14,849 bases of DNA from Gammaproteobacteria bacterium (GTDB taxonomy: Bacteria; Pseudomonadota; Gammaproteobacteria; GCA-001735895), in contig JBNKUM010000052.1 in assembly GCA_050298595.1 (NCBI GenBank), positions 1 to 14,849 of the forward strand, in the 5' to 3' direction. The translations under genes and the position numbers were made by a program. Below are positions 1-14,405 of the stretch, in pieces. The notes under the pieces are model-generated. The model was not told the origin of the DNA, searched no databases, and saw only the letters and a list, made by a program, of their open reading frames with translations. How positions within the stretch are numbered: position 1 is the first letter of the stretch; each line of letters opens with the position of its first letter.

Positions 1-445
1 GAAAGCCTTCATGAATCTCGGCTATGGGAAAACAGCCAGTTCACCCATTATTGCTCAGGATCTTGCCATGCTGCGCAACAATGACAGGTTCTTAATTAAC
101 CGCGATAGACTGCTGGACGCAGCAATACAGGCTGTTAACAACCCTGTAGAGCAACAGCAGTTTGAACGCCCTGCACTCAAAATGCCGGGTGAAGAACTAT
201 TTAATGAGATGCATCAATGGCTGGTAAAGGCACAACAAAAAGGAATATTCTACCCGCATGATGTTGTCGTCGGCACAGAAATCGCTCGAATCGTTACTGG
301 TGGTGAGATCCCTGCCGGAACCGTCTGGCATGAACAGGATTTTTACGATGCAGAACGTCGTGCATTTATAACACTGGCTTCAACACAGGCCACACGAGAC
401 CGTATTAACTCGATGCTAGATGGCGCAGGAAGTATAAGAAACTAA
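1..445 (+). CDS. 3' end of a 3-hydroxyacyl-CoA dehydrogenase/enoyl-CoA hydratase family protein (FadN-like), 5'-truncated by the window edge
   Basis: The frame is open from the window start (aaa gcc ttc atg...). The C-terminus ERRAFITLASTQATRDRINSMLDGAGSIRN and the HDVVVGTEIARIVTGG segment resemble FadN-type bifunctional beta-oxidation enzymes. The next gene is an acyl-CoA ligase. Confidence 0.8.
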   Translation, partial: KAFMNLGYGKTASSPIIAQDLAMLRNNDRFLINRDRLLDAAIQAVNNPVEQQQFERPALKMPGEELFNEMHQWLVKAQQKGIFYPHDVVVGTEIARIVTGGEIPAGTVWHEQDFYDAERRAFITLASTQATRDRINSMLDGAGSIRN

Positions 446-495: not shown

Positions 496-2133
496 ATGAC
501 AATCGATTACGACCTGTTGTCAAAAAATGATGCAAACTTTATCTCACTGACCCCCATATCTTTTCTTCATCGCAGTGCAGATATCTATCCTCAGCGTGAA
601 TCCATTATCTATAACCAGAGACGATATACCTGGGCACGAACGCGCGAAAGATGTGTCCGTATAGCGTCTAGCCTGCATAGTCGTGGCATCGGTAAAAATG
701 ATACCGTGTCTGTATTCGCCTTCAACACGCCGGAAATGGTCGAAAGTCATTTCTCCATTCCTATGGCAGGTGCAGTATTAAATACCATCAACACCAGACT
801 CGATGCCGAAACAGTAGCTTATATTATCGACCATGGAGAATCCCGCATGGTCATGGTAGATCGTCAGTTATTGCCGGTATTACAAAAGGCTCTTGAAACT
901 GCCAACGGTTCACCCGAGATTGTGCTTATCGATGATGCTGATGCCGATGAGAAACCGGAATTACCTGGAGATATTACATTCACTCTATACGAAGATCTGG
1001 TCGATCAGGGAGATAAAAACTTTGACTGGCAGGGACCGGAAGATGAATGGCAGGCTCTGGCACTCAATTACACATCAGGTACTACTGGGCATCCAAAAGG
1101 AGTGGCATACCATCATCGTGGATCCTACCTGATGACCATGGGTACAGTTATTTCATGGTCCCTGCACTCTCATCCTGTTTACCTGTACACCGTACCCATG
1201 TTCCATTGTAACGGCTGGGGACATGCATGGACCATGGCTGCGGTTGCCGGAACCATAGTGTGCATCAGAGCCTTTTCACCAAAGCGCCTGTTCGACCTCG
1301 TTGAACAACACAGGGTTACTCATTTTGGAGGCGCTCCGATCATTCTCAATATGTTGGCGAATGCCTCTCCTGAAGAGCAGAAGAAATTCGACCACACTGT
1401 ACATGTTATGACCGCAGGTGCCCCTCCTCCAGCTAAGGTACTCGAAAGCATGAACCAGTTTAATTTTGAAGTGATTCATGTATACGGATTGACTGAAAGC
1501 TATGGTCATATCCTGCACTCAGCGGTTCAGGATGACTGGGCAGAGCAAAGTATCGAAAAACAGGCCGAGTTAAAGTCTCGACAGGGCGTACGCTTCGCCA
1601 TGACGGAAGCAGTAGATGTCATCAACCCCGAATCAGGTGAATCAGTACCCTGGGATGCGGAAACCATTGGTGAAATCGTGATCCGTGGCAATACCCTTAT
1701 GAAGGGTTATCTAAAAGATATTGAAGCCACTGCAAAGGTATTTAAAGATGGCTGGTTTTTTAGCGGAGACCTGGCTGTTATCCACGAAGATGGTTACATT
1801 CAGATCAAAGACAGGGCCAAGGATATTATCATCTCTGGTGGCGAGAATATTTCATCGGTTGAGATAGAAGGTATCCTGTATAAACACCCTTCTGTAGGAG
1901 AAGCAGCTGTAGTTGCTATGGGCGATGAGAAATGGGGCGAAGTACCCTGCGCATTCATCGAACTGAAATCAGGGCAACATGTAAGCGAGGAAGAGCTGAT
2001 AGACTTCTGCGCCGACCATATGGCGCGTTTTAAGAAACCCAAGAAAGTGGTGTTTGGAGAATTACCTAAAACAGCCACAGGCAAGATCCAGAAGAATGTA
2101 TTACGTGAACGTGTGAAAGATACGGCTGAATAG
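496..2133 (+). CDS. Acyl-CoA synthetase / AMP-binding enzyme (short/medium-chain fatty acid-CoA ligase type)
   Basis: 545 aa with the ANL motifs YTSGTTGHPKG, YGLTE, SGDL, DRAKDIIISGGENI and PKTATGKIQK. Confidence 0.93.
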   Translation: MTIDYDLLSKNDANFISLTPISFLHRSADIYPQRESIIYNQRRYTWARTRERCVRIASSLHSRGIGKNDTVSVFAFNTPEMVESHFSIPMAGAVLNTINTRLDAETVAYIIDHGESRMVMVDRQLLPVLQKALETANGSPEIVLIDDADADEKPELPGDITFTLYEDLVDQGDKNFDWQGPEDEWQALALNYTSGTTGHPKGVAYHHRGSYLMTMGTVISWSLHSHPVYLYTVPMFHCNGWGHAWTMAAVAGTIVCIRAFSPKRLFDLVEQHRVTHFGGAPIILNMLANASPEEQKKFDHTVHVMTAGAPPPAKVLESMNQFNFEVIHVYGLTESYGHILHSAVQDDWAEQSIEKQAELKSRQGVRFAMTEAVDVINPESGESVPWDAETIGEIVIRGNTLMKGYLKDIEATAKVFKDGWFFSGDLAVIHEDGYIQIKDRAKDIIISGGENISSVEIEGILYKHPSVGEAAVVAMGDEKWGEVPCAFIELKSGQHVSEEELIDFCADHMARFKKPKKVVFGELPKTATGKIQKNVLRERVKDTAE

Positions 2134-2517: not shown

Positions 2518-4017
2518 TCAGGCGGCTGCTTCCGAGTGAGGCGCGTTGGATGACATCAATAAAACCTGCCTGATCACTCTAATGATCTGGTCAATTTCTT
2601 CAGCGGTAATATTAAAATGAGGTGTGAAACGTAAAGCGTTTTTTCCACCATGAATAACGCCCACGCCCATTTTACGCATCCTTTCTTCTATTGAATCCTT
2701 ACCAAAACACTTTAAGCCCGAATGCAGCTTAAAGGATACTAGTAACCCTGTTCCCTGTACGTCAGTAATCAATCCATTCATTTCCTGTGATAGCTGTTGC
2801 AGGCGATCCACAAATTCTCTGCCTTTGAGCTTTATATTCTCTCTTACATCAGGCGTTATCATAGACAGAACCTGCGTTGCTACATCCAGAGCACGCGGGT
2901 TTGTGGTCATGGTGTTTCCATAAACGCCTTTTTTATAAAGTGCCGCAGCTCGTTTGTTCATGGCTAATACGGATAAAGGATACTGACCCGCATTCAGCGC
3001 CTTGGACCAGGTTTCCATATCCGGTGCCTGTATGCCTTCAAACCCAGGGTAATCTACAATAGACAGGCAGCCATGAGCACGCAGGCCAGCCTGTATAGAA
3101 TCAACCAGTAATAAAGCCCCATGCTGGCTGGTTAATTCACGGGCCAGATCATAAAAATCACGCTCAATGGCCAGTCCTGGGTTGCCTTCACCCATAACCG
3201 GTTCGATAAACATGGATTCAATAAAAATGCCATCCAGCCTCGCCTGTTCAAAAACCTGGCGTAACTGTTGTTGGTTATTGGGTTCAACCGTCAACAGATT
3301 GTCTCTGTCTCTAAAGCTGGCCAGATGTTTTTTATAAACAGATTGAGATGAGTCTGAGTATTGAGCGGGCCTGTCGGTACGGCCATGAAATCCGCCTTTA
3401 AGGGCAATATGTTTAATGATCTTTTTGGCATGTGGACCATCGTTTTCAGTAGACAGAGCGGCATGAATATCAGAGATTCTCGCAGCAACAGAAACCGATT
3501 CCGAACCTGAATTAACAAAAAGAAATCCCTCGTAAGGACAACAACCGGAAGAATGTCCGACTTCATGTTTCAATGCCTCAATCAAGCGATACTGTGAAAA
3601 ACTGGCTGTCATCACATTGGCCATTACCTGATGTTGATTCATGGCCTGCAATACGGGCTCGGGAGAATGACCAAACCCGAGCATTCCATAGCCCCCGTTA
3701 TCGTGAATCACTGCACCTTTGGCTGTAATAATCCAGGGACCGCGAGCAGCCAGCGCAACAAAGGGATTCACCACATCTTCATCATAAAAATTGACGATTC
3801 CTTTTTGCATAGCCCTTACTTGCATAGACTCGTCCAGTCTCATCAATGCAGGCTGTTGTTGTGATAACTCCAGAAAAACCTGATAAGCATCATTAACGGC
3901 ATCAACCAGAGAGGGATGGCTGACAGCAAACCGATTGATCACCTCATCATCCAGACCGACTGTTTCCGCTTGCCCGGAAAAATCACGCATCGCTTTTAGT
4001 TTTTGTATTACATCCAT
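2518..4017 (-). CDS. lat: Class-III PLP aminotransferase, L-lysine 6-aminotransferase (LAT) type
   Basis: 499 aa with motifs VNFY..D.V.PFVALAARGPW, GGYGMLGFGH, NSGSE, FHGRTDRPA, EPVMGEG, DSIQAG, SKALN (PLP Lys) and YGNTMTTNPRALDVA. These closely match my recollection of the Flavobacterium lutescens / Xanthomonadales LAT. AmaB and AmaA nearby support the call. Confidence 0.8.
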   Translation of the reverse strand: MDVIQKLKAMRDFSGQAETVGLDDEVINRFAVSHPSLVDAVNDAYQVFLELSQQQPALMRLDESMQVRAMQKGIVNFYDEDVVNPFVALAARGPWIITAKGAVIHDNGGYGMLGFGHSPEPVLQAMNQHQVMANVMTASFSQYRLIEALKHEVGHSSGCCPYEGFLFVNSGSESVSVAARISDIHAALSTENDGPHAKKIIKHIALKGGFHGRTDRPAQYSDSSQSVYKKHLASFRDRDNLLTVEPNNQQQLRQVFEQARLDGIFIESMFIEPVMGEGNPGLAIERDFYDLARELTSQHGALLLVDSIQAGLRAHGCLSIVDYPGFEGIQAPDMETWSKALNAGQYPLSVLAMNKRAAALYKKGVYGNTMTTNPRALDVATQVLSMITPDVRENIKLKGREFVDRLQQLSQEMNGLITDVQGTGLLVSFKLHSGLKCFGKDSIEERMRKMGVGVIHGGKNALRFTPHFNITAEEIDQIIRVIRQVLLMSSNAPHSEAAA

Positions 4018-4136: not shown

Positions 4137-4568
4137 ATGACTAATTACGATAAAGATAGAGAGCTTCTTGCGCTGCTCAAAGATAATGCGAGAATGCCCA
4201 TCAGCGAGCTTGCGCGAAAACTAAATGTATCTCGTACGGCTGCTCAAGCCCGCCTTAGCCGACTTGAACGTAGCGGGGTCATTAACGGCTATACCATCAG
4301 GCTATCTGACAGTTATCAGGAAAATAACATCAAGGCCATTATCATGATTAAATTACCGCCTAAAAAGCGTGCAAAGGTTGAACAGACCTTGAAAGCAATC
4401 CCCGAATTAACCTCGCTTTATTCTATTAGTGGCACTTTTGATTTGTCTGCTATCGTCACGGCACCATCGGTTCCTGAACTGGATAAGATCATCGATCAAA
4501 TAGGCGCTTTGGAAGGCGTAGAAGAAACTCAATCTTCAGTTATTCTTTCAACCAAGATCGATCGTTGA
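4137..4568 (+). CDS. Lrp/AsnC family transcriptional regulator
   Basis: 143 aa. N-terminal HTH DRELLALLKDNARMPISELARKLNVSRTAAQARLSRLERSGVINGYT, plus a C-terminal RAM domain (SISGTFDL...). Confidence 0.95.
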   Translation: MTNYDKDRELLALLKDNARMPISELARKLNVSRTAAQARLSRLERSGVINGYTIRLSDSYQENNIKAIIMIKLPPKKRAKVEQTLKAIPELTSLYSISGTFDLSAIVTAPSVPELDKIIDQIGALEGVEETQSSVILSTKIDR

Positions 4569-4756: not shown

Positions 4757-5662
4757 ATGGGTATGAACCAAAGAAGGCTACTGCCGTCAACCAGTATGCT
4801 GTCCGCGTTTGAATCAGCTGCCAGGCTGGGTAGTTTTTCGCGCGCGGCGTCTGAATTAAACCTCACACAAGGCGCTATCTCTCGACAGGTTCGAGCCCTT
4901 GAAGATCAGCTTGAACTCGAACTGTTTGATCGTACGCCTCAACATGTCTGCCTGACACACGCAGGGGTTCAATATGCAAAAGAAATCGCAACAGCCCTGA
5001 ATATCATCAGAACCGCCACCCTAAACATTATTACCAATCATGACGGTGGTGAATTCAGGCTCTCAATTCTACCGACCTTCGGCACCAAATGGCTGATTCC
5101 TCGACTTTCAGGCTTTCTTACACAAAATCCCGATATCAACATTAGCTTCAAGAGTCATTTCGCTCCATTTGATTTCAATACAGAAAACGTGGATGCCGCT
5201 ATTCATTATGGACAACCCGATTGGCCCGATGCGGAATGTAGCTTTTTAATGAATGAAACCGTGGTCCCTGTTTATGCACCGTCTTTGGAGAAAAAGTATG
5301 TGATAGCCCAGCTAGAGGATTTCAGGAATATCCCCCTGCTGCATCTGTCCACTCGAGATGATCACTGGACTAAATGGTTTCAGTTAAACGGAATACAAAA
5401 CGAAATATCACAGGGTATTACGTTCGAACAGTTTTCTTCAGTTGCACAAGCTGCCTGCGCAGGCCTGGGGGTTGCCCTCATGCCCAGACTGTTTGTTGAA
5501 AATGAACTGAAATCAGGGGCCTTGAAAACATTTGAGGCCGGAGAGTGTAAGAGCTCATCGTCCTATTATTTCGTCACTCCCAAGCACAGAAGTACCTACG
5601 CCCCGGTTAGAGCGTTTCGAGAATGGATCGTAGAAACCGCCAGGGATTATTACATTTCGTAA
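4757..5662 (+). CDS. LysR family transcriptional regulator (GcvA-like)
   Basis: 301 aa. HTH RRLLPS..MLSAFESAARLGSFSRAASELNLTQGAISRQVRALE, then PTFGTKWLIPRL and AACAGLGVALMP. The start may be ATG 4763. Confidence 0.95.
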   Translation: MGMNQRRLLPSTSMLSAFESAARLGSFSRAASELNLTQGAISRQVRALEDQLELELFDRTPQHVCLTHAGVQYAKEIATALNIIRTATLNIITNHDGGEFRLSILPTFGTKWLIPRLSGFLTQNPDINISFKSHFAPFDFNTENVDAAIHYGQPDWPDAECSFLMNETVVPVYAPSLEKKYVIAQLEDFRNIPLLHLSTRDDHWTKWFQLNGIQNEISQGITFEQFSSVAQAACAGLGVALMPRLFVENELKSGALKTFEAGECKSSSSYYFVTPKHRSTYAPVRAFREWIVETARDYYIS

Positions 5663-5772: not shown

Positions 5773-7458
5773 ATGTTAGACAAGGTAAGCGCTCAGGAGA
5801 TTAAAGTTGATGAAGTCATGCGTAAAGCTGACTTATCCAGTGAATCAACAGGGATTGATATTGAAACAGTCATGCATGAAGGCGGCTACCCGGAAGAGGC
5901 GCAGCAAATCGCGTTAAAAGAAAAGTTGTTACCTTCAGGGCTGGTGAATCGTTTACACAATATTTACCCCCACTATTCCATCCTCAGTCGTACAAGCAGG
6001 CCGATGTTTACCGAGCGTGAAAACTACACCGGATTGAAGGGCTTTCGTACCGTTTGTGCAACGCTTGCAGAACACGGTATTGACATCGGCCATATTGATG
6101 AGCGCGAGCTTTTTGTTGAGGTTTACCGTTTTCTGGCAACACGCCATACATTGAATAGTATTGACTGGGAAAACTACAGCAGCGATAGCGTATTTCAGCT
6201 GGTTTTCCCCCAACCGGGGATGATTCGCCAGGATATAGTAGATAAATATATTGCTGCCGGAGACAAACAATCTCGTACTCAGGTTGCGCTGGACTATATG
6301 CAGGAAACCAACCCGCATGACGGTAACCAGCTACTGAACAAACCCTGGTTTAAGAATGAGGATGGTGTACTTGAAGTGCTAGCAGGAAGCCAGCATAAAT
6401 ACCCGCAGACACAGCTAATTTTTGATAAATCAACGCAGCACTGTTTCTCTTTCTGTACCTACTGTTTTCGTCATGCTCAGGTACGCGGTGACGAAGATAT
6501 GTTTCTGCAAAAAGACATCAATCAAATTCACGAATACATGCGTCAGCATAAAGAAATCACCGACATGTTGATTACCGGCGGTGACGGTGGGTATATGCCT
6601 GCTGACCGGCTGATGCAATACGTTGAGCCACTATTCACCGATCCAGAGCTCATGCATATCCGCACTGTGCGTCTGGCAACACGCGCTTTAACCTTTCAGC
6701 CTGAACTGGTTCTGACCGCTAAATACGAAAAAATGCTGGCCGTTTTCGACAAGCTTCATGAAAACGGAATTCAACTGGCCTGGATGGCGCATTTCTCAAC
6801 ACCAAAAGAATTACTTAACCCGATGACTATTGCAGCAGTACGTCGTCTGCAACGACACGGAGTCGTCATTAGAAGTCAAAGCCCGATGATGAAACACATC
6901 AGCCTGTTCCCGAATGTCGATGGCAGCATCGATATCGATAAGTCTGCCCAGAACTGGATTGATCTGGCTCATATCCTTTGTACACTATCGATAGGCTTCC
7001 ACTCTATGTACTGCGCTCGTCCAACCGGTGAGCATCATTACTACACTGCGCCTTTAGCGGATGTGGTGAAGATTTTTAACAAAATCTACCGATCCCTGCC
7101 CTCTATCTCACGCCCCTCTCGCCATATCTCCATGACGACTTCGGCGGGCAAATTATCTTTGATGGGTCTGTCTGAAATCAATGGCGAAACCGTGTTTGCG
7201 CTGAAATTCAACGAAGCGCGCAACATGCAATGGATCGATAAAGTTTTCCATGCCAAATACAACCCAGACACCAATGATGTCAATCTACTTAATCCCATCG
7301 AAGGCGATAGCTTCTTCTTTGAAAACGAACTGCAACAGATTGAAGATGAACTGGGTGATTCACTAAAAGAAGCCATGGCAAGTGCGACCAGCGTTCATAT
7401 GGATGAAACTCTGCAGGAAGATCAATCCGCAGAAACAGATTTTCCAGCCGCTTTCTAA
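5773..7458 (+). CDS. KamA-family radical SAM / PLP-dependent 2,3-aminomutase (substrate probably not lysine; candidate 2-aminoadipate 2,3-aminomutase)
   Basis: 561 aa. HKYP is followed by CFSFCTYCFR (C224/C228/C231, R233). Further motifs are ITGGD, RTVRLATR, AHF..P.EL, RSQSP and SAGK460 (PLP-Lys equivalent). RBS GAGGA lies upstream. Confidence 0.88.
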   Translation: MLDKVSAQEIKVDEVMRKADLSSESTGIDIETVMHEGGYPEEAQQIALKEKLLPSGLVNRLHNIYPHYSILSRTSRPMFTERENYTGLKGFRTVCATLAEHGIDIGHIDERELFVEVYRFLATRHTLNSIDWENYSSDSVFQLVFPQPGMIRQDIVDKYIAAGDKQSRTQVALDYMQETNPHDGNQLLNKPWFKNEDGVLEVLAGSQHKYPQTQLIFDKSTQHCFSFCTYCFRHAQVRGDEDMFLQKDINQIHEYMRQHKEITDMLITGGDGGYMPADRLMQYVEPLFTDPELMHIRTVRLATRALTFQPELVLTAKYEKMLAVFDKLHENGIQLAWMAHFSTPKELLNPMTIAAVRRLQRHGVVIRSQSPMMKHISLFPNVDGSIDIDKSAQNWIDLAHILCTLSIGFHSMYCARPTGEHHYYTAPLADVVKIFNKIYRSLPSISRPSRHISMTTSAGKLSLMGLSEINGETVFALKFNEARNMQWIDKVFHAKYNPDTNDVNLLNPIEGDSFFFENELQQIEDELGDSLKEAMASATSVHMDETLQEDQSAETDFPAAF

Positions 7459-7487: not shown

Positions 7488-8198
7488 ATGATAGATAAAC
7501 GCATATCTACCGTTGCTGAAGCCGTTGCCGATATTCCTGATGGTGCCACCATCATGATTGGCGGTTTTGGTGAAGCCGGCAGCCCTACCGAACTGATCCA
7601 TGCGCTGATCGACCAGGGAGCTAAAGAGCTGACCGTCATCAATAACAATACCGGCAATGGTGAAATTGGTCTGGCCGCACTCATTGGCAACGGCCAGGTG
7701 AGGAAAATGATCTGTTCCTACCCTCGCTCCAGTCACTCGAAGGTTTTTCCAGTGTTATACCGTAATGGAGACATTGAGCTCGAAATCGTTCCACAGGGCA
7801 CTCTGGCTGAACGTATTCGTGCAGGTGGTGCCGGCATACCCGCGTTTTATACCGCCACAACGGTGGGAACGGTACTGGCCGACGGAAAAGAAAAACGTGA
7901 ATTCGATGAGCGCGAGTACGTACTGGAATATGCGCTTAAGGCTGATTTTGCGCTGATTAAATGTGAACGAGCAGACCGCCTCGGTAACCTGATCTACAAC
8001 AAAACTGCACGTAATTTTAATCCGATTATGTGTACTGCTTCGACAACCACCATCGTACAGGCACACAAGATTGTAGAGCTTGGTCAGCTTGATCCAGAAG
8101 CAATCATTACGCCCAATGTTTTCGTTAATCGAATTGTTGAAGTGGAATCGCCTCTGATTGAATCTAAACTGATTGCCGAGGGAGTGAGCTACCCATGA
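7488..8198 (+). CDS. pcaI: 3-oxoadipate (3-oxoacid) CoA-transferase subunit A
   Basis: MIDK.I...AEAVADIPDGATIMIGGFG.AG.P.ELI.ALIDQGA, NNTGNG, CSYPR and PQGTLAERIRAGGAGIPAFYT are typical of PcaI. Confidence 0.88.
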   Translation: MIDKRISTVAEAVADIPDGATIMIGGFGEAGSPTELIHALIDQGAKELTVINNNTGNGEIGLAALIGNGQVRKMICSYPRSSHSKVFPVLYRNGDIELEIVPQGTLAERIRAGGAGIPAFYTATTVGTVLADGKEKREFDEREYVLEYALKADFALIKCERADRLGNLIYNKTARNFNPIMCTASTTTIVQAHKIVELGQLDPEAIITPNVFVNRIVEVESPLIESKLIAEGVSYP

Positions 8199-8866
8199 AT
8201 GAAGTCGCACAACAAATAGTTAAAGGCTGGTCGCGCGAACAGATGGCCGAACAGGTTGCTCTGGATATACCTGATGGCTCCTACGTCAACCTGGGTATCG
8301 GCATTCCTGAGCTGGTGGCAAAGTTTGCTCCCGAGGGACGTGAGTTCATCTATCACACCGAGAATGGCTTATTGGGTATGGGGCCAGAGCCAGCCACCGG
8401 TGAGCAGGATCATGAACTGATCAATGCTGGCAAAAAAGCCGTCACCATCATTCCTGGCGGCTGTTATTTCCACCATGCCGATAGCTTCACCATGATACGC
8501 GGTGGTCATATCGATGTCTGTGTGCTGGGAGCGATGCAGGTATCAGAAAAAGGCGATCTGGCTAACTGGTCGACTGGAGCGCCCGATGCCATTCCTGCCG
8601 TTGGAGGGGCAATGGATCTGGTCGCAGGTGTCAAAAACATATACGTCATAACCCAGCACACAACCAAAAATGGTGAGCCGAAGATCGTCAGGCAATGCAG
8701 CTATCCACTAACAGGCCCCGAAGTTGTTTCGCGCATCTACACTGATTTGTGCGTCATAGATGTAAGCGATCAAGGTCTTAAGGTATTGAAACTTGCCCCC
8801 GGTATCAGTTTTGATGAAGTCTGCGACAAAACCGATGCGCCATTAATTCCTCCCAAAGGAGTATAA
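8195..8866 (+). CDS. pcaJ: 3-oxoadipate (3-oxoacid) CoA-transferase subunit B
   Basis: YVNLGIGIP, HTENG (catalytic Glu), LINAGK, MIRGGH and GDLANWSTG..DAIPAVGGAMDL. ATGA overlap with subunit A. Confidence 0.88.
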   Translation: MNEVAQQIVKGWSREQMAEQVALDIPDGSYVNLGIGIPELVAKFAPEGREFIYHTENGLLGMGPEPATGEQDHELINAGKKAVTIIPGGCYFHHADSFTMIRGGHIDVCVLGAMQVSEKGDLANWSTGAPDAIPAVGGAMDLVAGVKNIYVITQHTTKNGEPKIVRQCSYPLTGPEVVSRIYTDLCVIDVSDQGLKVLKLAPGISFDEVCDKTDAPLIPPKGV

Positions 8867-8869
8867 GAA

Positions 8870-10180
8870 ATGAATTCCCCAATCAGTGCCGCTCTGTTTG
8901 AACGTGCACAAAAAGTCCTTCCAGGCGGGGTAAGCAGAGATACGCTGAAGCGTGGAGCACATCCCCTTTACGTAAGCCATGGCAAAGGTTGCATGGTTAC
9001 CGATGTCGATGGTGTTGAGCGCATCGATTTTGCCAACAATATGGCTTCCCATATCCACGGACATGCATTTGGACCCATCGTCGAAGCAGTCTCCAGGCAA
9101 CTACAACTTGGCACAGCCTTTACCATGGCGACAGAAGCAGAAGTACTGTTTGCAGAACAGCTATGTTCTCGCTGTGACAGCTTCGATAAGGTCCGCTTTA
9201 TGAATTCAGGCACCGAGGCCGTGATGGCCGGAATGAAGGCAGCACGAGCTTTTACCGGCAAACACAAAATTGCCAAGGTCGAAGGTAGCTACCACGGCGC
9301 CTACGACTATGCTGAAGTCAGCCAGGCTCCAACTCCCGGCAACTGGGGGTCACTGGATCATCCCAATTCGGTGCCACTAGCACAGGGGACGCCTAAATCG
9401 GTTGCTGAAGATATGGTGATCCTGCCCTTCAACGAGCCCGCCAAAGCCCTTGCACGGCTAGAGCAGCATAAAGATGAAATCGCCTGCGTGCTTATTGATC
9501 CTGTACCTCATCGCATCGGTATGTCTCAGGTTAACAGTGAATTTGTTGAGGCAATCGATCAATGGTGTAAAGCCAATAATTCATTATTCATGTTCGATGA
9601 AGTCATCACCTTCCGTACCGAATTTGGTGGTGCGCAACAACGTTTTAAGGTCACGCCAGATCTAACCTCAATGGGTAAAATGATCGGTGGTGGTTTTCCG
9701 GTCGGGGCACTGGCTGGTCGAGATGAGGTGATGCAAGTATTCAGCAATGGACGCCTGCCCCACTCAGGCACTTTTTCAGCCAACCCAGTTACCATGACAG
9801 CAGGTCGTGTTGCGATGGAATATTATGACCAGCAGGCCGTTGCCCGACTCAACCAACTGGGCGATTATGCTAGGGATTGCCTGAGGTCGGCGATTCAAAC
9901 CGCCGATGTCGCCGCAAGCGTAACGGGCGCAGGCTCTTTGCTAAGGCTGCACATGAAGCCAGAGGTTCCTGCTAACTTTCGCGAAGCACATACAAACAAC
10001 ATTGAAAAACAGGCACTCACCCAGTTCATTAATGATTTGTATGATGATGGCATCATGATGATCCATACCGGGGCAGCAGCGCTTTCAACAGCTATGGGTG
10101 AAGCAGAAATCGACCGTCTGGCCGAAGCTGTGCTTAAATCCTTACGTAATATCAAACCACTACTGACGCAGGCAGCATGA
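8870..10180 (+). CDS. Class-III PLP aminotransferase, glutamate-1-semialdehyde aminomutase-like fold (probable beta-amino acid transaminase)
   Basis: 436 aa with LPGGVSR, NSGTEA, GSYHG, FDEVITFR, GKMIGGGFPVGA (PLP Lys) and HSGTFSAN. It lacks the HemL GGVNSPVRA motif. Confidence 0.85.
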   Translation: MNSPISAALFERAQKVLPGGVSRDTLKRGAHPLYVSHGKGCMVTDVDGVERIDFANNMASHIHGHAFGPIVEAVSRQLQLGTAFTMATEAEVLFAEQLCSRCDSFDKVRFMNSGTEAVMAGMKAARAFTGKHKIAKVEGSYHGAYDYAEVSQAPTPGNWGSLDHPNSVPLAQGTPKSVAEDMVILPFNEPAKALARLEQHKDEIACVLIDPVPHRIGMSQVNSEFVEAIDQWCKANNSLFMFDEVITFRTEFGGAQQRFKVTPDLTSMGKMIGGGFPVGALAGRDEVMQVFSNGRLPHSGTFSANPVTMTAGRVAMEYYDQQAVARLNQLGDYARDCLRSAIQTADVAASVTGAGSLLRLHMKPEVPANFREAHTNNIEKQALTQFINDLYDDGIMMIHTGAAALSTAMGEAEIDRLAEAVLKSLRNIKPLLTQAA

Positions 10181-11385
10181 TGACTGAAGCCTATATATGT
10201 GATGCCGTACGTACCCCAATTGGTCGTTATGGCGGTAGTCTATCCTCTATACGTGCAGATGACCTGGGCGCCTTGCCGCTTAAGGCTTTGATGCAAAGAA
10301 ATCCTGACATGGACTTGCGCAGTATCGACGACGTAATCTTTGGATGTGCCAATCAGGCCGGTGAAGACAATCGAAATGTTGCGCGCATGTCCTCTCTGCT
10401 GGCTGGATTACCGGTCGATGCCTCCGCGATGACCATCAACCGACTTTGTGGTTCTGGTATGGATGCCGTGGGTACCGCAGCGCGCGCTATCAAGTCTGGT
10501 GATACACAGCTAATGATTGCCGGTGGTGTAGAAAGCATGACTCGTGCCCCTTTTGTTTTACCCAAGGCAAACGCGGCTTTTTCCCGCAGCAACGAGCTAT
10601 ACGACACGACCATGGGCTGGCGCTTTGTCAACCGGTTAATGCAACAGGAGTATGGTGTTGAATCTATGCCGGAAACAGCAGAAAACGTGGCCGAAGAATT
10701 TTCTATCTCACGCGCAGACCAGGATCTGTTTGCCTATCGCTCTCAAATGAAGACTGCCCGCGCTCAGGATGCCGGTATCCTAGCTGAAGAAATCATCCCG
10801 GTATCCATTGAGCAACGCAAAGCCGAGCCAATTATTTTTGATACCGATGAACACCCTCGTTCGGATACTAAGCTGGAAAAACTGGCTACCCTGAAAGCCC
10901 CCTTTCGTGAAGGTGGTTCTGTTACAGCGGGCAATGCCTCCGGCATCAACGATGGTGCCTGCGCTATTATCATCGCGTCAAAATCTGCGGCAGAGAAAAA
11001 TATGCTAACGCCCAAAGCTCGAATCGTCGCGATGGCATGTGCGGGTGTACCGCCCCGCATTATGGGGGTCGGCCCCATTAAAGCGGTGCAAAAAATCATG
11101 CATCAAACCGGTTTAACACTAACCGATATGGATGTCATTGAACTGAACGAGGCTTTTGCGGCTCAAGCCCTGGCATGTACCCGTGGTCTGGGTCTGGCTG
11201 ATGATGACGCTCGAATCAACCCGAATGGCGGTGCTATTGCACTGGGTCATCCTCTGGGTATGAGTGGAGCTCGTCTGATCTCTACAGCGACTTATCAGCT
11301 GCAGCGCACACAGGGACGATATGCCTTGTGCAGTATGTGTATTGGCGTTGGCCAGGGCATTGCAATCATCCTCGAACGTATTTAA
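10177..11385 (+). CDS. pcaF: 3-oxoadipyl-CoA thiolase (PcaF/PaaJ family)
   Basis: RTPIGRYGG, GCANQAGEDNRNVARM, NRLCGSG (catalytic Cys), DTTMGWRFVN, SMPETAENVA, NEAFA, GHPLGMSG and CIGVGQG. ATGA overlap with the upstream gene. Confidence 0.92.
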   Translation: MMTEAYICDAVRTPIGRYGGSLSSIRADDLGALPLKALMQRNPDMDLRSIDDVIFGCANQAGEDNRNVARMSSLLAGLPVDASAMTINRLCGSGMDAVGTAARAIKSGDTQLMIAGGVESMTRAPFVLPKANAAFSRSNELYDTTMGWRFVNRLMQQEYGVESMPETAENVAEEFSISRADQDLFAYRSQMKTARAQDAGILAEEIIPVSIEQRKAEPIIFDTDEHPRSDTKLEKLATLKAPFREGGSVTAGNASGINDGACAIIIASKSAAEKNMLTPKARIVAMACAGVPPRIMGVGPIKAVQKIMHQTGLTLTDMDVIELNEAFAAQALACTRGLGLADDDARINPNGGAIALGHPLGMSGARLISTATYQLQRTQGRYALCSMCIGVGQGIAIILERI

Positions 11386-11412: not shown

Positions 11413-12915
11413 ATGTCTTATTCTGAAATTTTTAAAAACCTTGGTTTTGAATCGAGTGAATACCAGAGCGGTACTTTAAGTGTTCATTCCCCAATCGATG
11501 GAACTCTTATTGCGAACGTACCCGAGATCAGTTCGCAAGAAATGGAGGCTACTATTGAGCGATCCAGAGTCGCATTCGAAGAATGGAAAAGCGTACCCGC
11601 ACCCCGTCGAGGCGAGCTGGTGAGATTACTCGGCGAAGAATTGCGTAAATCGAAGGATGATCTTGGCAAACTGGTTACCCTGGAATGTGGAAAAATCTAC
11701 ACCGAAGGCCTGGGCGAAGTTCAGGAAATGATAGATATCTGTGATTTTGCCGTCGGACTTTCACGTCAGCTCTACGGTCTGACCATCGCATCCGAACGTC
11801 CTGGACATTCTATGCGTGAAACCTGGCATCCTCTTGGCCCGGTCGGGGTGATTAGCGCGTTTAACTTCCCGGTTGTCGTTTGGTCATGGAACACCGCAAT
11901 TGCCCTGGTTTGTGGCAACAGCTTAATCTGGAAGCCATCTGAAAAATCGCCATTGACAGCCATGGCCTGCGCAAAAATTCTCGAACGTGCTTTGGCCCGT
12001 TTCGGTGAGGCACCTGCAAACCTTCACCAGCTAGCCATAGGCGGACGTGAAGTCGGTGAAACCCTGGTAGCAAGCAACAAGGTCGCCCTGATCAGTGCAA
12101 CCGGCAGTACTCGCATGGGCAAGGCTGTTGGTCCTAAGGTTGCCGAGCGCTTCGGTCGCTCAATCCTTGAGCTGGGTGGTAACAATGCAATGATCGTGAC
12201 AGCTTCCGCTGATCTTGATATGGCCGTGCGCGCCATCCTCTTTAGTGCAGTCGGTACCTGTGGGCAACGCTGCACATCCCTGCGTCGCCTCATCGTACAC
12301 AAAGATGTTAAAGATCAACTGCTACCAAAAGTCAAAAAGGCTTACGCAAGCGTCAACATCGGTAATCCGCTTGATGGCGATAATCTGGTAGGCCCTCTGA
12401 TCGATGAGGATGCATACAAGGCTATGCAAAATGCCCTGCAAAATGCACAAAGTGAAGGCGCTACTGTTACGGGTGGTAGACGTACATTACTCGCCGAATA
12501 CCCAGAAGCCTATTATATCGAACCGGCCGTTGTCGAAATGCCGAGCCAGAGCGAAGTGGTCAAAAATGAAACCTTTGCCCCGATTCTGTATGTCATGGAA
12601 TACGAAGACCTTGATGATGCCATTCATATGCAGAATGATGTCCCGCAAGGCCTCTCCTCCTGCATCTTTTCAACCGATTTGCGTGAAGCTGAATACTTCA
12701 TCTCCGCAACAGGCTCCGATTGTGGTATTGCCAACGTGAATATCGGTCCCAGTGGCGCTGAAATCGGTGGAGCCTTTGGCGGTGAAAAAGAAACCGGCGG
12801 TGGTCGGGAATCTGGTTCAGATGCGTGGAAAGGCTATATGCGTCGGCAGACAAATACGGTAAATTACTCCCGAGAACTCCCATTAGCTCAGGGAGTGGAA
12901 TTTAATCTGGATTAA
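11413..12915 (+). CDS. amaB: ALDH7-family aldehyde dehydrogenase: piperideine-6-carboxylate / 2-aminoadipate semialdehyde dehydrogenase
   Basis: PAPRRGELVR, GEVQEMIDICDFAVGLSRQLYG, ELGGNN (ALDH7 signature), GTCGQRCT (catalytic Cys) and GAEIGGAFGGEKETGGGRESGSDAWK. Confidence 0.9.
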   Translation: MSYSEIFKNLGFESSEYQSGTLSVHSPIDGTLIANVPEISSQEMEATIERSRVAFEEWKSVPAPRRGELVRLLGEELRKSKDDLGKLVTLECGKIYTEGLGEVQEMIDICDFAVGLSRQLYGLTIASERPGHSMRETWHPLGPVGVISAFNFPVVVWSWNTAIALVCGNSLIWKPSEKSPLTAMACAKILERALARFGEAPANLHQLAIGGREVGETLVASNKVALISATGSTRMGKAVGPKVAERFGRSILELGGNNAMIVTASADLDMAVRAILFSAVGTCGQRCTSLRRLIVHKDVKDQLLPKVKKAYASVNIGNPLDGDNLVGPLIDEDAYKAMQNALQNAQSEGATVTGGRRTLLAEYPEAYYIEPAVVEMPSQSEVVKNETFAPILYVMEYEDLDDAIHMQNDVPQGLSSCIFSTDLREAEYFISATGSDCGIANVNIGPSGAEIGGAFGGEKETGGGRESGSDAWKGYMRRQTNTVNYSRELPLAQGVEFNLD

Positions 12916-13124: not shown

Positions 13125-14405
13125 ATGACAACATTCAACGAGAAAAATTTATGGCGCGATAGCGCCCAGAATATCAACAGCTATACCGCTCTGGAGCAGG
13201 ACATAGATGTTGATGTGGTGATTATCGGTGGAGGCTTTAGCGGCCTGTCTGCGGCCTTGCGCCTGGCCGAAAACAAACACAGTGTTGCCGTGCTGGAAGC
13301 CCATGACATTGGTTATGGGGGCAGCGGACGCAATGTTGGACTGGTTAACGCCGGGCTATGGTTGAAGCCGGATGAGATAACGCAGCATATGGGGCAGCAG
13401 TATGGTGATCGACTCATCCACTTTTTGGGTAATGCACCGCAACAGGTATTTAAGATCATCGAAAAATATGGCATTGACTGCGAAGCACGGCATAACGGTA
13501 CGCTGCACTGTGCTGATAGTGAAAAAGCAAGAAATGAGCTGTTTCAACGCCAGCAGCAATGGTCAAAGTATGGGGTTTCGCTTGATTTACTCAGCCAGAA
13601 CGAAACAGAGCGATTAACCGGAACAGACAAATTCTGTGCTGCGTTGCATGATAAGCGAGCGGGAACTATTCAGCCTTTTAGTTACGCCTGTGGTCTGGCA
13701 CAGAATGCATCGGCTCTAGGGGCTTCTATCTTTTGTAATAGCCCCGTGCTTTCGGTTTCACGACAGGGCTCCAACTGGCAGGTCAAGACAGCCAGAGGCA
13801 GTGTCACTGCGCAAAAGATCATATCTGCTACCGGTACCTACGGCCAGAACACAGCAGACTATGAAGTACCAAAGACTACGGCGCTATACTTTTTCCAGAT
13901 GGCGACCGAACCCCTGAGCGATGCTTTACAAAAGGAAATACTACCCGAAAAGCATGGTGCCTGGGATACCCGGCAAGTTCTCTCCTCATTTCGAATGAAC
14001 GATGAAGGGCGTATGATTATCGGTAGTATTGGCAATCTGGATAATGCCTCATATGACGTTCATAGAGCCTGGGCCAGCCGTAAATTAGGTCAACTCTACC
14101 CACAGCTGAAAGGTGTGCCATTCACGCATGAATGGTACGGCAGGATCGGACTGACCAATAACAATATTCCACGACTAGCTCAGCCCCATCCCGACTGGTT
14201 ATCGATATGGGGATACAACGGCCGTGGTATAGGCCCCGGCACGGTGTTTGGACGTCTGCTCGCTGATCTGCTCATGTCTGGTAGTGTCGATGTCGAGCTT
14301 CCACTTCCGTACAGTAAACTCCAGGCTGAAAAATTTATCGGTCTGCAAAGCTTTGCCATCGAATTTGGCGCAACTGCCTACCATGCAGGGAAGGCTCGTT
14401 TTTAA
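13125..14405 (+). CDS. amaA: FAD-dependent oxidoreductase, DadA/DAO family; probable L-pipecolate oxidase/dehydrogenase
   Basis: DVVIIGGGFSG (FAD binding), GGSGRNVGLVNAGLW, DKRAGTIQP and GYNGRGIGPGTVFG. It follows amaB, as in known pipecolate clusters. Confidence 0.78.
   Translation: MTTFNEKNLWRDSAQNINSYTALEQDIDVDVVIIGGGFSGLSAALRLAENKHSVAVLEAHDIGYGGSGRNVGLVNAGLWLKPDEITQHMGQQYGDRLIHFLGNAPQQVFKIIEKYGIDCEARHNGTLHCADSEKARNELFQRQQQWSKYGVSLDLLSQNETERLTGTDKFCAALHDKRAGTIQPFSYACGLAQNASALGASIFCNSPVLSVSRQGSNWQVKTARGSVTAQKIISATGTYGQNTADYEVPKTTALYFFQMATEPLSDALQKEILPEKHGAWDTRQVLSSFRMNDEGRMIIGSIGNLDNASYDVHRAWASRKLGQLYPQLKGVPFTHEWYGRIGLTNNNIPRLAQPHPDWLSIWGYNGRGIGPGTVFGRLLADLLMSGSVDVELPLPYSKLQAEKFIGLQSFAIEFGATAYHAGKARF

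Follow-up and report, generated by a model that had tools for sequence, protein, structure and literature searches.

What does a divergent relative of lysine 2,3-aminomutase (LAM) do when its gene is followed by genes for 3-oxoadipate activation and cleavage and for 2-aminoadipate formation? We asked this of an open reading frame (ORF) at positions 5773-7458 of a 14,849-nucleotide (nt) stretch of DNA from a gammaproteobacterium (contig JBNKUM010000052.1). The whole stretch is called the window here, and all positions without a locus or contig label are in its numbering. An earlier annotation made by a model from the letters alone, the sequence-only reading, had proposed a possible 2-aminoadipate 2,3-aminomutase with a charge-reversed side-chain pocket. 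That assignment is still the best one we have, but it is the gene neighbourhood that argues for it and the pocket residues lend it little. In our judgement the balance tips slightly towards a radical S-adenosylmethionine (SAM), pyridoxal phosphate (PLP)-dependent amino acid 2,3-aminomutase from a deep-branching part of the KamA family that has no name of its own, which would act on L-2-aminoadipate to give 3-aminoadipate.

The gene row and the pathway it suggests

The aminomutase gene belongs to a row of genes on one strand, listed here with model scores and, after "against", the cut-offs of the models.

4757-5662, forward strand: GcvA-like regulator of the LysR family (Pfam HTH_1 and LysR_substrate; NF008352, 282 bits against 288), 110 nt upstream of the aminomutase gene.
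5773-7458, forward strand: aminomutase gene (translation also labelled P0001, 561 amino acids), a divergent KamA-family radical SAM/PLP enzyme and proposed 2-aminoadipate 2,3-aminomutase.
7488-8198, forward strand: 3-oxoacid CoA-transferase subunit A, PcaI/ScoA family (TIGR02429, 353.8 bits against 128.5).
8195-8866, forward strand: 3-oxoacid CoA-transferase subunit B, PcaJ/ScoB family (TIGR02428, 294.3 bits against 243.55), with a 4-nt overlap with the subunit A gene.
8870-10180, forward strand: class III aminotransferase of the glutamate-1-semialdehyde (GSA) aminomutase/beta-transaminase branch (Aminotran_3; HemL models below cut-off, 330 against 398), proposed 3-aminoadipate transaminase.
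10177-11385, forward strand: 3-oxoadipyl-CoA thiolase PcaF (TIGR02430, 702.5 bits against 597; NF006551, 721.7 against 605), over the equivalog cut-off.
11413-12915, forward strand: AmaB, the L-piperideine-6-carboxylate (2-aminoadipate semialdehyde) dehydrogenase, which produces 2-aminoadipate (NF050084, 826.6 bits against 730), 27 nt past the thiolase gene.
13125-14405, forward strand: AmaA-like FAD oxidase of the L-pipecolate oxidase family (Pfam DAO; NF050086, 472.6 bits against 600, below cut-off), after a 209-nt gap.

From the aminomutase gene through amaB the intergenic gaps are 29, -4, 3, -4 and 27 nt. The sequence-only reading had named AmaB as a neighbour, and this neighbour is real. 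What it had missed is the stronger evidence in between, that is, the PcaIJ-type CoA-transferase, the beta-transaminase-like enzyme and the PcaF thiolase. No paralogue of PcaI or PcaJ was detected in this genome (E<=1e-15, at least 60% cover). In a search of the Protein Data Bank (PDB) the aminotransferase matched 6k8h at 9e-106, ForI at 3e-97 and GSA aminomutases at about 1e-60, with the beta-amino-acid transaminases 6iz9, 2yku and 4ao9 at 1e-56 to 1e-54. By these matches the enzyme is placed in a branch that holds solved beta-amino-acid transaminases.

Arranged by their expected chemistry, the products of the row would form a continuous route. The AmaA-like oxidase and AmaB would carry pipecolate and piperideine-6-carboxylate to 2-aminoadipate. 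The aminomutase would then move the amino group of free 2-aminoadipate from C2 to C3 in a radical SAM/PLP 1,2-amino shift, and the GSA-aminomutase-like class III aminotransferase would convert the resulting 3-aminoadipate to 3-oxoadipate. With succinyl-CoA as donor, the PcaIJ-type CoA-transferase would form 3-oxoadipyl-CoA, which PcaF would cleave to acetyl-CoA and succinyl-CoA, regenerating the donor. The net reaction would turn 2-aminoadipate, an amino acceptor and CoA into succinate and acetyl-CoA and would use no oxygen. What the data show directly is the fold, the cofactor motifs, the lack of acidic residues at both LAM side-chain positions, and which neighbours are present and conserved. 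Which amino acid is used, which way the pathway runs and what the aminomutase and the aminotransferase catalyse are inferred. Only a C6 dicarboxylic amino acid would return succinyl-CoA to the transferase, and the five genes would therefore be stoichiometrically self-sufficient with such a substrate.

The row is not a peculiarity of the window. A scan of species-representative genomes gave 137 relatives of the aminomutase, and 80 loci (57-83% identity) were kept. Their hosts are Gamma-, Alpha- and Deltaproteobacteria, SAR324, Sumerlaeota, Fermentibacterota, Bacteroidota, Fibrobacterota and Gemmatimonadota. Neighbours were counted by tblastn with the window's neighbours as queries (E<=1e-20, at least 60% cover) in loci many of which are incomplete in the available DNA. 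Counted in this way, the aminotransferase was present in 62 loci, PcaI in 59, PcaJ in 58, PcaF in 45 and the LysR regulator in 30, and two clusters of LysR proteins occur among the related loci (26 and 21 loci). Sixty loci extend at least 5.5 kb downstream of the aminomutase gene. The genes for PcaI, PcaJ, the aminotransferase and PcaF, in this order the cassette, follow it directly on the same strand in 37 of them, and part of the set follows in 14. Cassette thiolases from eight of eight other loci also pass the PcaF cut-off, with 650-695 bits.

We hold it an evenly balanced question whether these genes form a widespread, oxygen-independent five-enzyme module, headed by a new radical SAM 2-aminoadipate 2,3-aminomutase, that would convert 2-aminoadipate to succinate and acetyl-CoA by way of 3-aminoadipate and 3-oxoadipate. 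In the window the module would be joined with AmaB and AmaA, so that one cluster would lead from pipecolate to central metabolism. Such a module would add a fourth substrate class to KamA, a new terminal branch to bacterial lysine catabolism and, for bacteria without an aromatic pathway, a non-aromatic feedstock for the end enzymes of the beta-ketoadipate pathway.

Fold, cofactor motifs and side-chain pocket

The 561 codons of the aminomutase ORF translate with no internal stop. The catalytic residues were located by script, and every coordinate that the sequence-only reading had given, for the iron-sulfur motif, R233, YCAR and the stretch from S453 to K460, was matched. Conservation is given for 73 orthologues, which are the window protein and 72 of the 74 clustered ORFs from the related loci, those of at least 480 amino acids.

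6442-6465, forward strand: codons of C224xxxC228xxC231, the radical SAM [4Fe-4S] motif; C224 and C231 in 73 of 73 orthologues, C228 in 72 of 73 plus one X.
6469-6471, forward strand: R233, opposite LAM R134 in the phmmer and profile alignments to 2A5H; 73 of 73 orthologues.
7018-7020, forward strand: R416, within YCAR (413-416), at the position of LAM D293 in the profile alignment to 2A5H; 73 of 73 orthologues.
7129-7131, forward strand: S453, within HISMTTSAGK (451-460), placed opposite LAM D330 by ungapped extension; Ser in 70 of 73 orthologues, Thr in the other 3.
7150-7152, forward strand: K460, the presumed PLP-binding lysine (LAM K337); 73 of 73 orthologues.

The three cysteines of the CxxxCxxC motif, by which KamA-family proteins are recognised, are invariant across a 52-sequence alignment (A1), which holds P0001 and 12 of its orthologues, 35 representatives of distant KamA-like proteins and four proteins above the cut-off of the general KamA model. 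R233 supplies the arginine equivalent to LAM R134, a further mark of the family, and the GGD motif is intact as in LAM. The remaining cysteines of the protein are C95, C403 and C414. In LAM a C-terminal cysteine cluster binds zinc; the aminomutase has no cysteine after residue 414 and hence no LAM-type C-terminal Cys/Zn site.

The protein has no Pfam match and misses the curated cut-off of the KamA family model TIGR00238, with 72.8 bits against 199.2. The NCBIfam models for the named subfamilies scored as follows.

AblA-like 2: 66.7 bits, cut-off 396.25.
Arginine 2,3-aminomutase, TIGR04468: 61.2 bits, cut-off 600.
AblA lysine 2,3-aminomutase, TIGR03820: 60.7 bits, cut-off 525.4.
Glutamate 2,3-aminomutase, TIGR04368: 58.2 bits, cut-off 650.
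EpmB, TIGR03821: 47.7 bits, cut-off 369.3.

The aminomutase is roughly equally distant from each of these subfamilies. On the evidence of such scores it is a member of a branch of the KamA superfamily that lies outside the curated family as drawn. Its database relatives number more than 1,351 and are mostly unnamed or labelled lysine 2,3-aminomutase. The same genome also encodes a canonical KamA-family paralogue (TIGR00238, 309.2 bits). Another stretch of this genome (G000:C100:7712-8032, in L083) gave a weak KamA-family match of 30.6 bits. Two TAA stop codons interrupt its frame, and it may represent either a gene remnant or some unrelated gene of the radical SAM type.

An AlphaFold2 model computed from the 52-sequence alignment had a mean pLDDT of 89.1 and a pTM of 0.89. 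Foldseek returned lysine 2,3-aminomutase 2A5H as the top PDB match of the model (E 6e-15). Comparison with the LAM structure, a check that the sequence-only reading had suggested, aligned model residues 73-486 with residues 3-390 of 2a5h_A in VIA-align (Z 29.0, rmsd 2.9, 323 residues, 18% identity), and the runner-up PDB entry reached Z 11.9. As modelled, the protein has the KamA fold, extends about 70 residues further than LAM at the N-terminus and differs from it at the C-terminus.

These two structural departures, the scores below every curated KamA cut-off and the housekeeping-like contexts of a sister family described below would also suit an enzyme that does not act on a free amino acid as an aminomutase. 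It could catalyse a radical SAM/PLP reaction of a different kind or, like EpmB, provide a beta-amino acid that is used in a modification, with its neighbours merely co-localised. We consider this quite unlikely. The catalytic residues are conserved, the gene order recurs across phyla with overlapping or near-abutting genes and, to our knowledge, every characterised member of the KamA family is a 2,3-aminomutase.

The assignment of pocket residues depends on how far the alignment to LAM reaches. We take D293 and D330 of LAM to bind the epsilon-amine of lysine, R134 to bind the alpha-carboxylate and K337 to be the PLP lysine. A single-sequence phmmer search against the PDB aligned residues 203-377 of the aminomutase to LAM 106-266 and did not reach the D293/D330 region. 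The A1 profile matched 2A5H with an E value of 1.3e-54 and covered LAM 103-323. In the column view of this alignment, LAM D293 lies opposite a conserved profile arginine that is R416 of P0001. The canonical KamA paralogue of the same genome, used as a control, has Asp at this position.

LAM 323 is where the profile alignment ends, and beyond it we would pair D330 with S453 and K337 with K460 by ungapped extension, since the distance from a shared SG(Y/L)x motif to the PLP lysine is 14 residues in both proteins. The extension is supported by the conservation of K460, at least 90% in A1, and by the structural match, which reaches LAM 390. The spacing between K460 and the D293 equivalent is the same as in LAM, as expected of a KamA-family PLP lysine. 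The ungapped by-eye alignment of the sequence-only reading was thus borne out at D293/R416 by the profile, and at D330/S453 it agrees with the extension. The acidic residues that mark lysine 2,3-aminomutases at D293 and D330, whose presence would have spoken against the proposal, are replaced by R416 and S453.

The two replacements argue against a lysine or arginine 2,3-aminomutase that would open a beta-lysine route. Some sources name homologues L-lysine 2,3-aminomutase, and AmaB and AmaA are lysine-pathway genes, which would fit such an enzyme. The scores of the window protein do not, at 60.7 bits with the AblA model (cut-off 525.4) and 61.2 bits with that for arginine aminomutase (cut-off 600), and no enzyme of the beta-lysine pathway was found among the window neighbours scanned with Pfam and NCBIfam or among the sampled flanking ORFs of related loci. 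We regard a lysine or arginine substrate as highly improbable.

Glutamate 2,3-aminomutase reportedly has Lys and Asn in place of the two Asp residues of LAM, and the sequence-only reading had taken the changes from D to R and from D to S as a pointer to a dicarboxylic substrate. This step proved weak. We extended A1 by 33 further representatives and counted residues in the 59 non-orthologous KamA-like proteins with an aligned PLP lysine. Arg occupies the 416 position in 41 of the 59, and the 453 position is Val in 29 and Ser in 19 (48 of 59 Ser or Val). Among these proteins are four that pass TIGR00238, and P0146, a natural fusion of 882 amino acids. It joins an N-monooxygenase, which scores 259 bits with the histamine N-monooxygenase model and stays below its cut-off, to a KamA-like domain that also has Arg at the 416 position. 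P0146 may belong to a siderophore-type beta-amino acid pathway.

The same Arg/Ser pair also occurs in a P0129-like sister family, with the motifs xARD and GPSMS, which turned up in 13 of the 301 genomes sampled from the phylum. Three loci of this family were annotated (genes at L094:6879-8270, L095:7212-8627 and L096:7075-8463, 55-61% identical to P0129). The genes stand alone, with a Zn peptidase (Zn_peptidase_2) neighbour in two loci and pyruvate dehydrogenase E1/E2 in one, and with no catabolic cassette. Given this distribution and these unrelated contexts, the apparent charge reversal is, as far as the alignments tell, an ancestral state of the clade rather than a mark of dicarboxylate specificity, as a caveat in the sequence-only reading about other KamA-like subfamilies had correctly anticipated. 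By the same comparison the pair rules out a LAM-type lysine pocket and does not single out a dicarboxylate.

If R416 is a structural feature of the clade, leucine, 2-aminobutyrate, norvaline or another neutral amino acid might be the substrate, and its beta-keto acid would be activated by a ScoAB-type transferase and cleaved by the thiolase. Arginine at this position throughout the clade, in families of unrelated contexts as well, agrees with this idea, and ScoAB-type transferases, the assignment here being at family level, also use acetoacetate. We find it very unlikely nonetheless: the thiolase is of the PcaF type and AmaB is linked to the cassette in at least four lineages. The orthogroup has in addition its own changes near the arginine, where the Asp that follows it in most relatives is lost (xRD-TG becomes ARP-TGEHHY), together with PYY to FHS and His451. 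Loss of the Asp after R416 would leave the positive charge of the arginine uncompensated, which speaks against a neutral substrate.

The proposed link to 2-aminoadipate in other genomes

AmaB was found by tblastn in nine of the 80 related loci, in eight of them at 56% identity or more; the ninth, L012, has a generic aldehyde dehydrogenase at 27%. In a quick maximum-likelihood IQ-TREE tree of the aminomutases, the AmaB-bearing loci are spread over at least four lineages, and well-supported branches require at least four separate changes. Of the tested genomes 13 have AmaB, and in four of these it adjoins the cassette, a share that we estimate to be far above the roughly 0.5% for a random place in a 4-Mb genome. 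At one locus (L008) a saccharopine dehydrogenase gene follows AmaB.

PcaD, the enol-lactonase of the classical pathway, did not exceed its cut-off in any of five genomes (the window's genome, a Shewanella, a Photobacterium, a Pseudoalteromonas and a Fermentibacteraceae metagenome-assembled genome), and the control passed in two of 14. The classical aromatic supply of 3-oxoadipate was thus not found in these five genomes. HglS, the known 2-oxoadipate outlet, is over its cut-off in one of 40 cassette-bearing genomes and in one of the 13 of those with AmaB.

Several findings count against 2-aminoadipate as the substrate, besides the clade-wide arginine and the cassette-free sister loci described above. 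At the level of whole genomes, 13 of the 40 genomes with the cassette have an AmaB that passes its cut-off. A sample of the class that leaves out the window's genome, G000, gives 31 of 150 (30 of 149 without the unpublished genome G181), and there is no clear enrichment of AmaB with the cassette. A clade of Shewanella, Photobacterium and Pseudoalteromonas has the full cassette and AmaB in none of 15 tested genomes, so that a source of 2-aminoadipate there is unexplained. None of the 80 related loci has an AmaA-like gene beside the row. No recurrent transporter or other gene that would tell the substrate was seen beside the cassette, and its flanks are lineage-specific, with for example methyl-accepting chemotaxis proteins (MCPs), Usp, BCCT and thioesterase genes. 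Nine of the 60 loci with sufficient downstream DNA, all from Colwelliaceae, have no cassette directly downstream.

The window's genome has in addition HglS, the 2-oxoadipate dioxygenase/decarboxylase (670.1 bits against 550), directly followed by a YdiJ-like D-2-hydroxyglutarate dehydrogenase (987.5 bits against 1350). The two genes lie on another contig, away from amaAB (G000:C33:43785-48110, that is, L085:8786-13111). They correspond to the outlet for 2-aminoadipate published for Pseudomonas putida, which runs via 2-oxoadipate and D-2-hydroxyglutarate to 2-ketoglutarate (bioRxiv 10.1101/450254). With HglS and the YdiJ-like enzyme present, the cassette is not needed to close a 2-aminoadipate pathway in this organism.

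The missing AmaB in 27 of the 40 cassette-bearing genomes also raises the question of another acidic substrate. Glutamate would give beta-glutamate and 3-oxoglutarate, and 2-aminopimelate would give 3-oxopimelate, with the CoA-transferase and thiolase acting on the matching 3-oxo-dicarboxylate. An unpaired arginine at the D293 position would suit any distal carboxylate, and the CoA-transferase is assigned at the level of the PcaIJ/ScoAB family only. We nevertheless think such a substrate unlikely. The thiolase exceeds the equivalog cut-off for 3-oxoadipyl-CoA in the window and in all eight other loci, AmaB is repeatedly adjacent, the glutamate 2,3-aminomutase model gives 58.2 bits against 650, and succinyl-CoA would be returned to the transferase by a C6 substrate alone. 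For these reasons we retain L-2-aminoadipate as the favoured substrate.

The surroundings of the related genes vary. In the nine Colwelliaceae loci (L018-L020, L025, L031, L033, L034, L038 and L041), genes for AraC, MFS, LysR, cytochrome b561 and YceI proteins lie downstream of the aminomutase gene, and in L025 and L033 genes for the aminotransferase and PcaF lie 8-10 kb off on the other strand. One Shewanella and one Photobacterium have genes beside the cassette for MCPs that carry a 4HB_MCP sensor (L026:16729-18480 and L017:6688-8874); these may encode a chemoreceptor for the cassette substrate. A glutamate dehydrogenase gene stands directly upstream of the cassette at L053:8206-9753. A class I/II aminotransferase gene comes directly after PcaF in four Motiliproteus/Halopseudomonas loci (for example L049:15728-17125), and a 4HBT thioesterase gene lies by the cassette in seven loci (for example L049:9095-9508 and L078:15554-15937).

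Upstream of the row, the window encodes on the reverse strand (2518-4017) a divergent 499-amino-acid class III aminotransferase. It scores highest with argD-like models (130 bits), stays far below the cut-off of every model and is not LAT. In divergent orientation to it lies an Lrp/AsnC regulator gene (4137-4568, forward strand; best match LysM, 99 bits against 180). This gene pair may be lysine-related; neither member was found in the 80 related loci. The window begins with the C-terminal end of a FadB-like protein (2-445, forward strand) and an acyl-CoA synthetase gene (496-2133, forward strand; NF006020, 828.6 bits against 677), and these two are not conserved beside the cassette elsewhere. 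A promoter scan gave 11 promoter-like sites, with 15.7 expected from shuffles, and 16 terminator-like sites, with 9.8 expected, neither usefully above the shuffles.

Relation to known systems

In open-access PMC and bioRxiv we found no description of a 2-aminoadipate 2,3-aminomutase or of biological 3-aminoadipate. This window adds the direct joining of the cassette with AmaB and AmaA, the coexistence with HglS and the missing PcaD. If the proposal is correct, it adds a substrate specificity to the radical SAM aminomutases and an unrecognised, anaerobically feasible outlet for the lysine intermediate 2-aminoadipate. The outlet would be spread over many phyla, and its hosts would include marine Shewanella, Photobacterium, Pseudoalteromonas and Colwellia that are in culture. 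It would also explain PcaIJ and PcaF genes in organisms that lack the aromatic beta-ketoadipate pathway, and it would correct the labels "lysine 2,3-aminomutase" and "hypothetical protein" on more than 1,000 database entries. As a natural metabolite, 3-aminoadipate would then gain interest for the biotechnology of C6 diacids.

The closest structural relative is LAM (KamA) of Clostridium subterminale (PDB 2A5H). The fold and the CxxxCxxC and GGD motifs are common to the two enzymes, as are an Arg two residues past the last Cys of the cluster motif and the distance to the PLP lysine. They differ in that structural identity is 18%, that Arg and Ser take the place of the two Asp residues, that the window enzyme has the N-terminal extension of about 70 residues and that the gene context is another. 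Glutamate 2,3-aminomutase (TIGR04368), reportedly an enzyme of Clostridioides difficile, is said to follow an analogous logic, in which the two lysine-binding Asp residues are swapped for basic or neutral ones and the substrate is acidic. The window enzyme scores low with its model. It belongs to a separate branch and is not known to have PcaIJ or PcaF partners.

Clostridial lysine fermentation (KamA, KamDE, Kdd and Kce) likewise moves an amino group to the beta carbon and then cleaves a beta-keto intermediate to acetyl units, whereas its substrate and downstream enzymes are different. No B12 aminomutase or Kce-type cleavage enzyme appeared among the window neighbours in general Pfam and NCBIfam scans, in which no search was aimed at those families. 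With the P. putida route (bioRxiv 10.1101/450254), which employs the aminotransferase PP_4108, HglS (PP_5260) and PP_4493, the pathway would share its proposed substrate and the upstream AmaA and AmaB. The P. putida route has a dioxygenase-type step, according to the NCBIfam name of HglS, and ends in 2-ketoglutarate, whereas the route proposed here would be independent of oxygen and would end in succinate and acetyl-CoA.

The last steps have their counterpart in the beta-ketoadipate pathway. The window's PcaIJ and PcaF proteins pass the family and equivalog cut-offs for its end enzymes, and the chemistry past 3-oxoadipate is presumably the same. The difference lies in the supply: PcaD passes its cut-off in none of the five genomes tested, and the 3-oxoadipate would come here from an amino acid and not from aromatic compounds.

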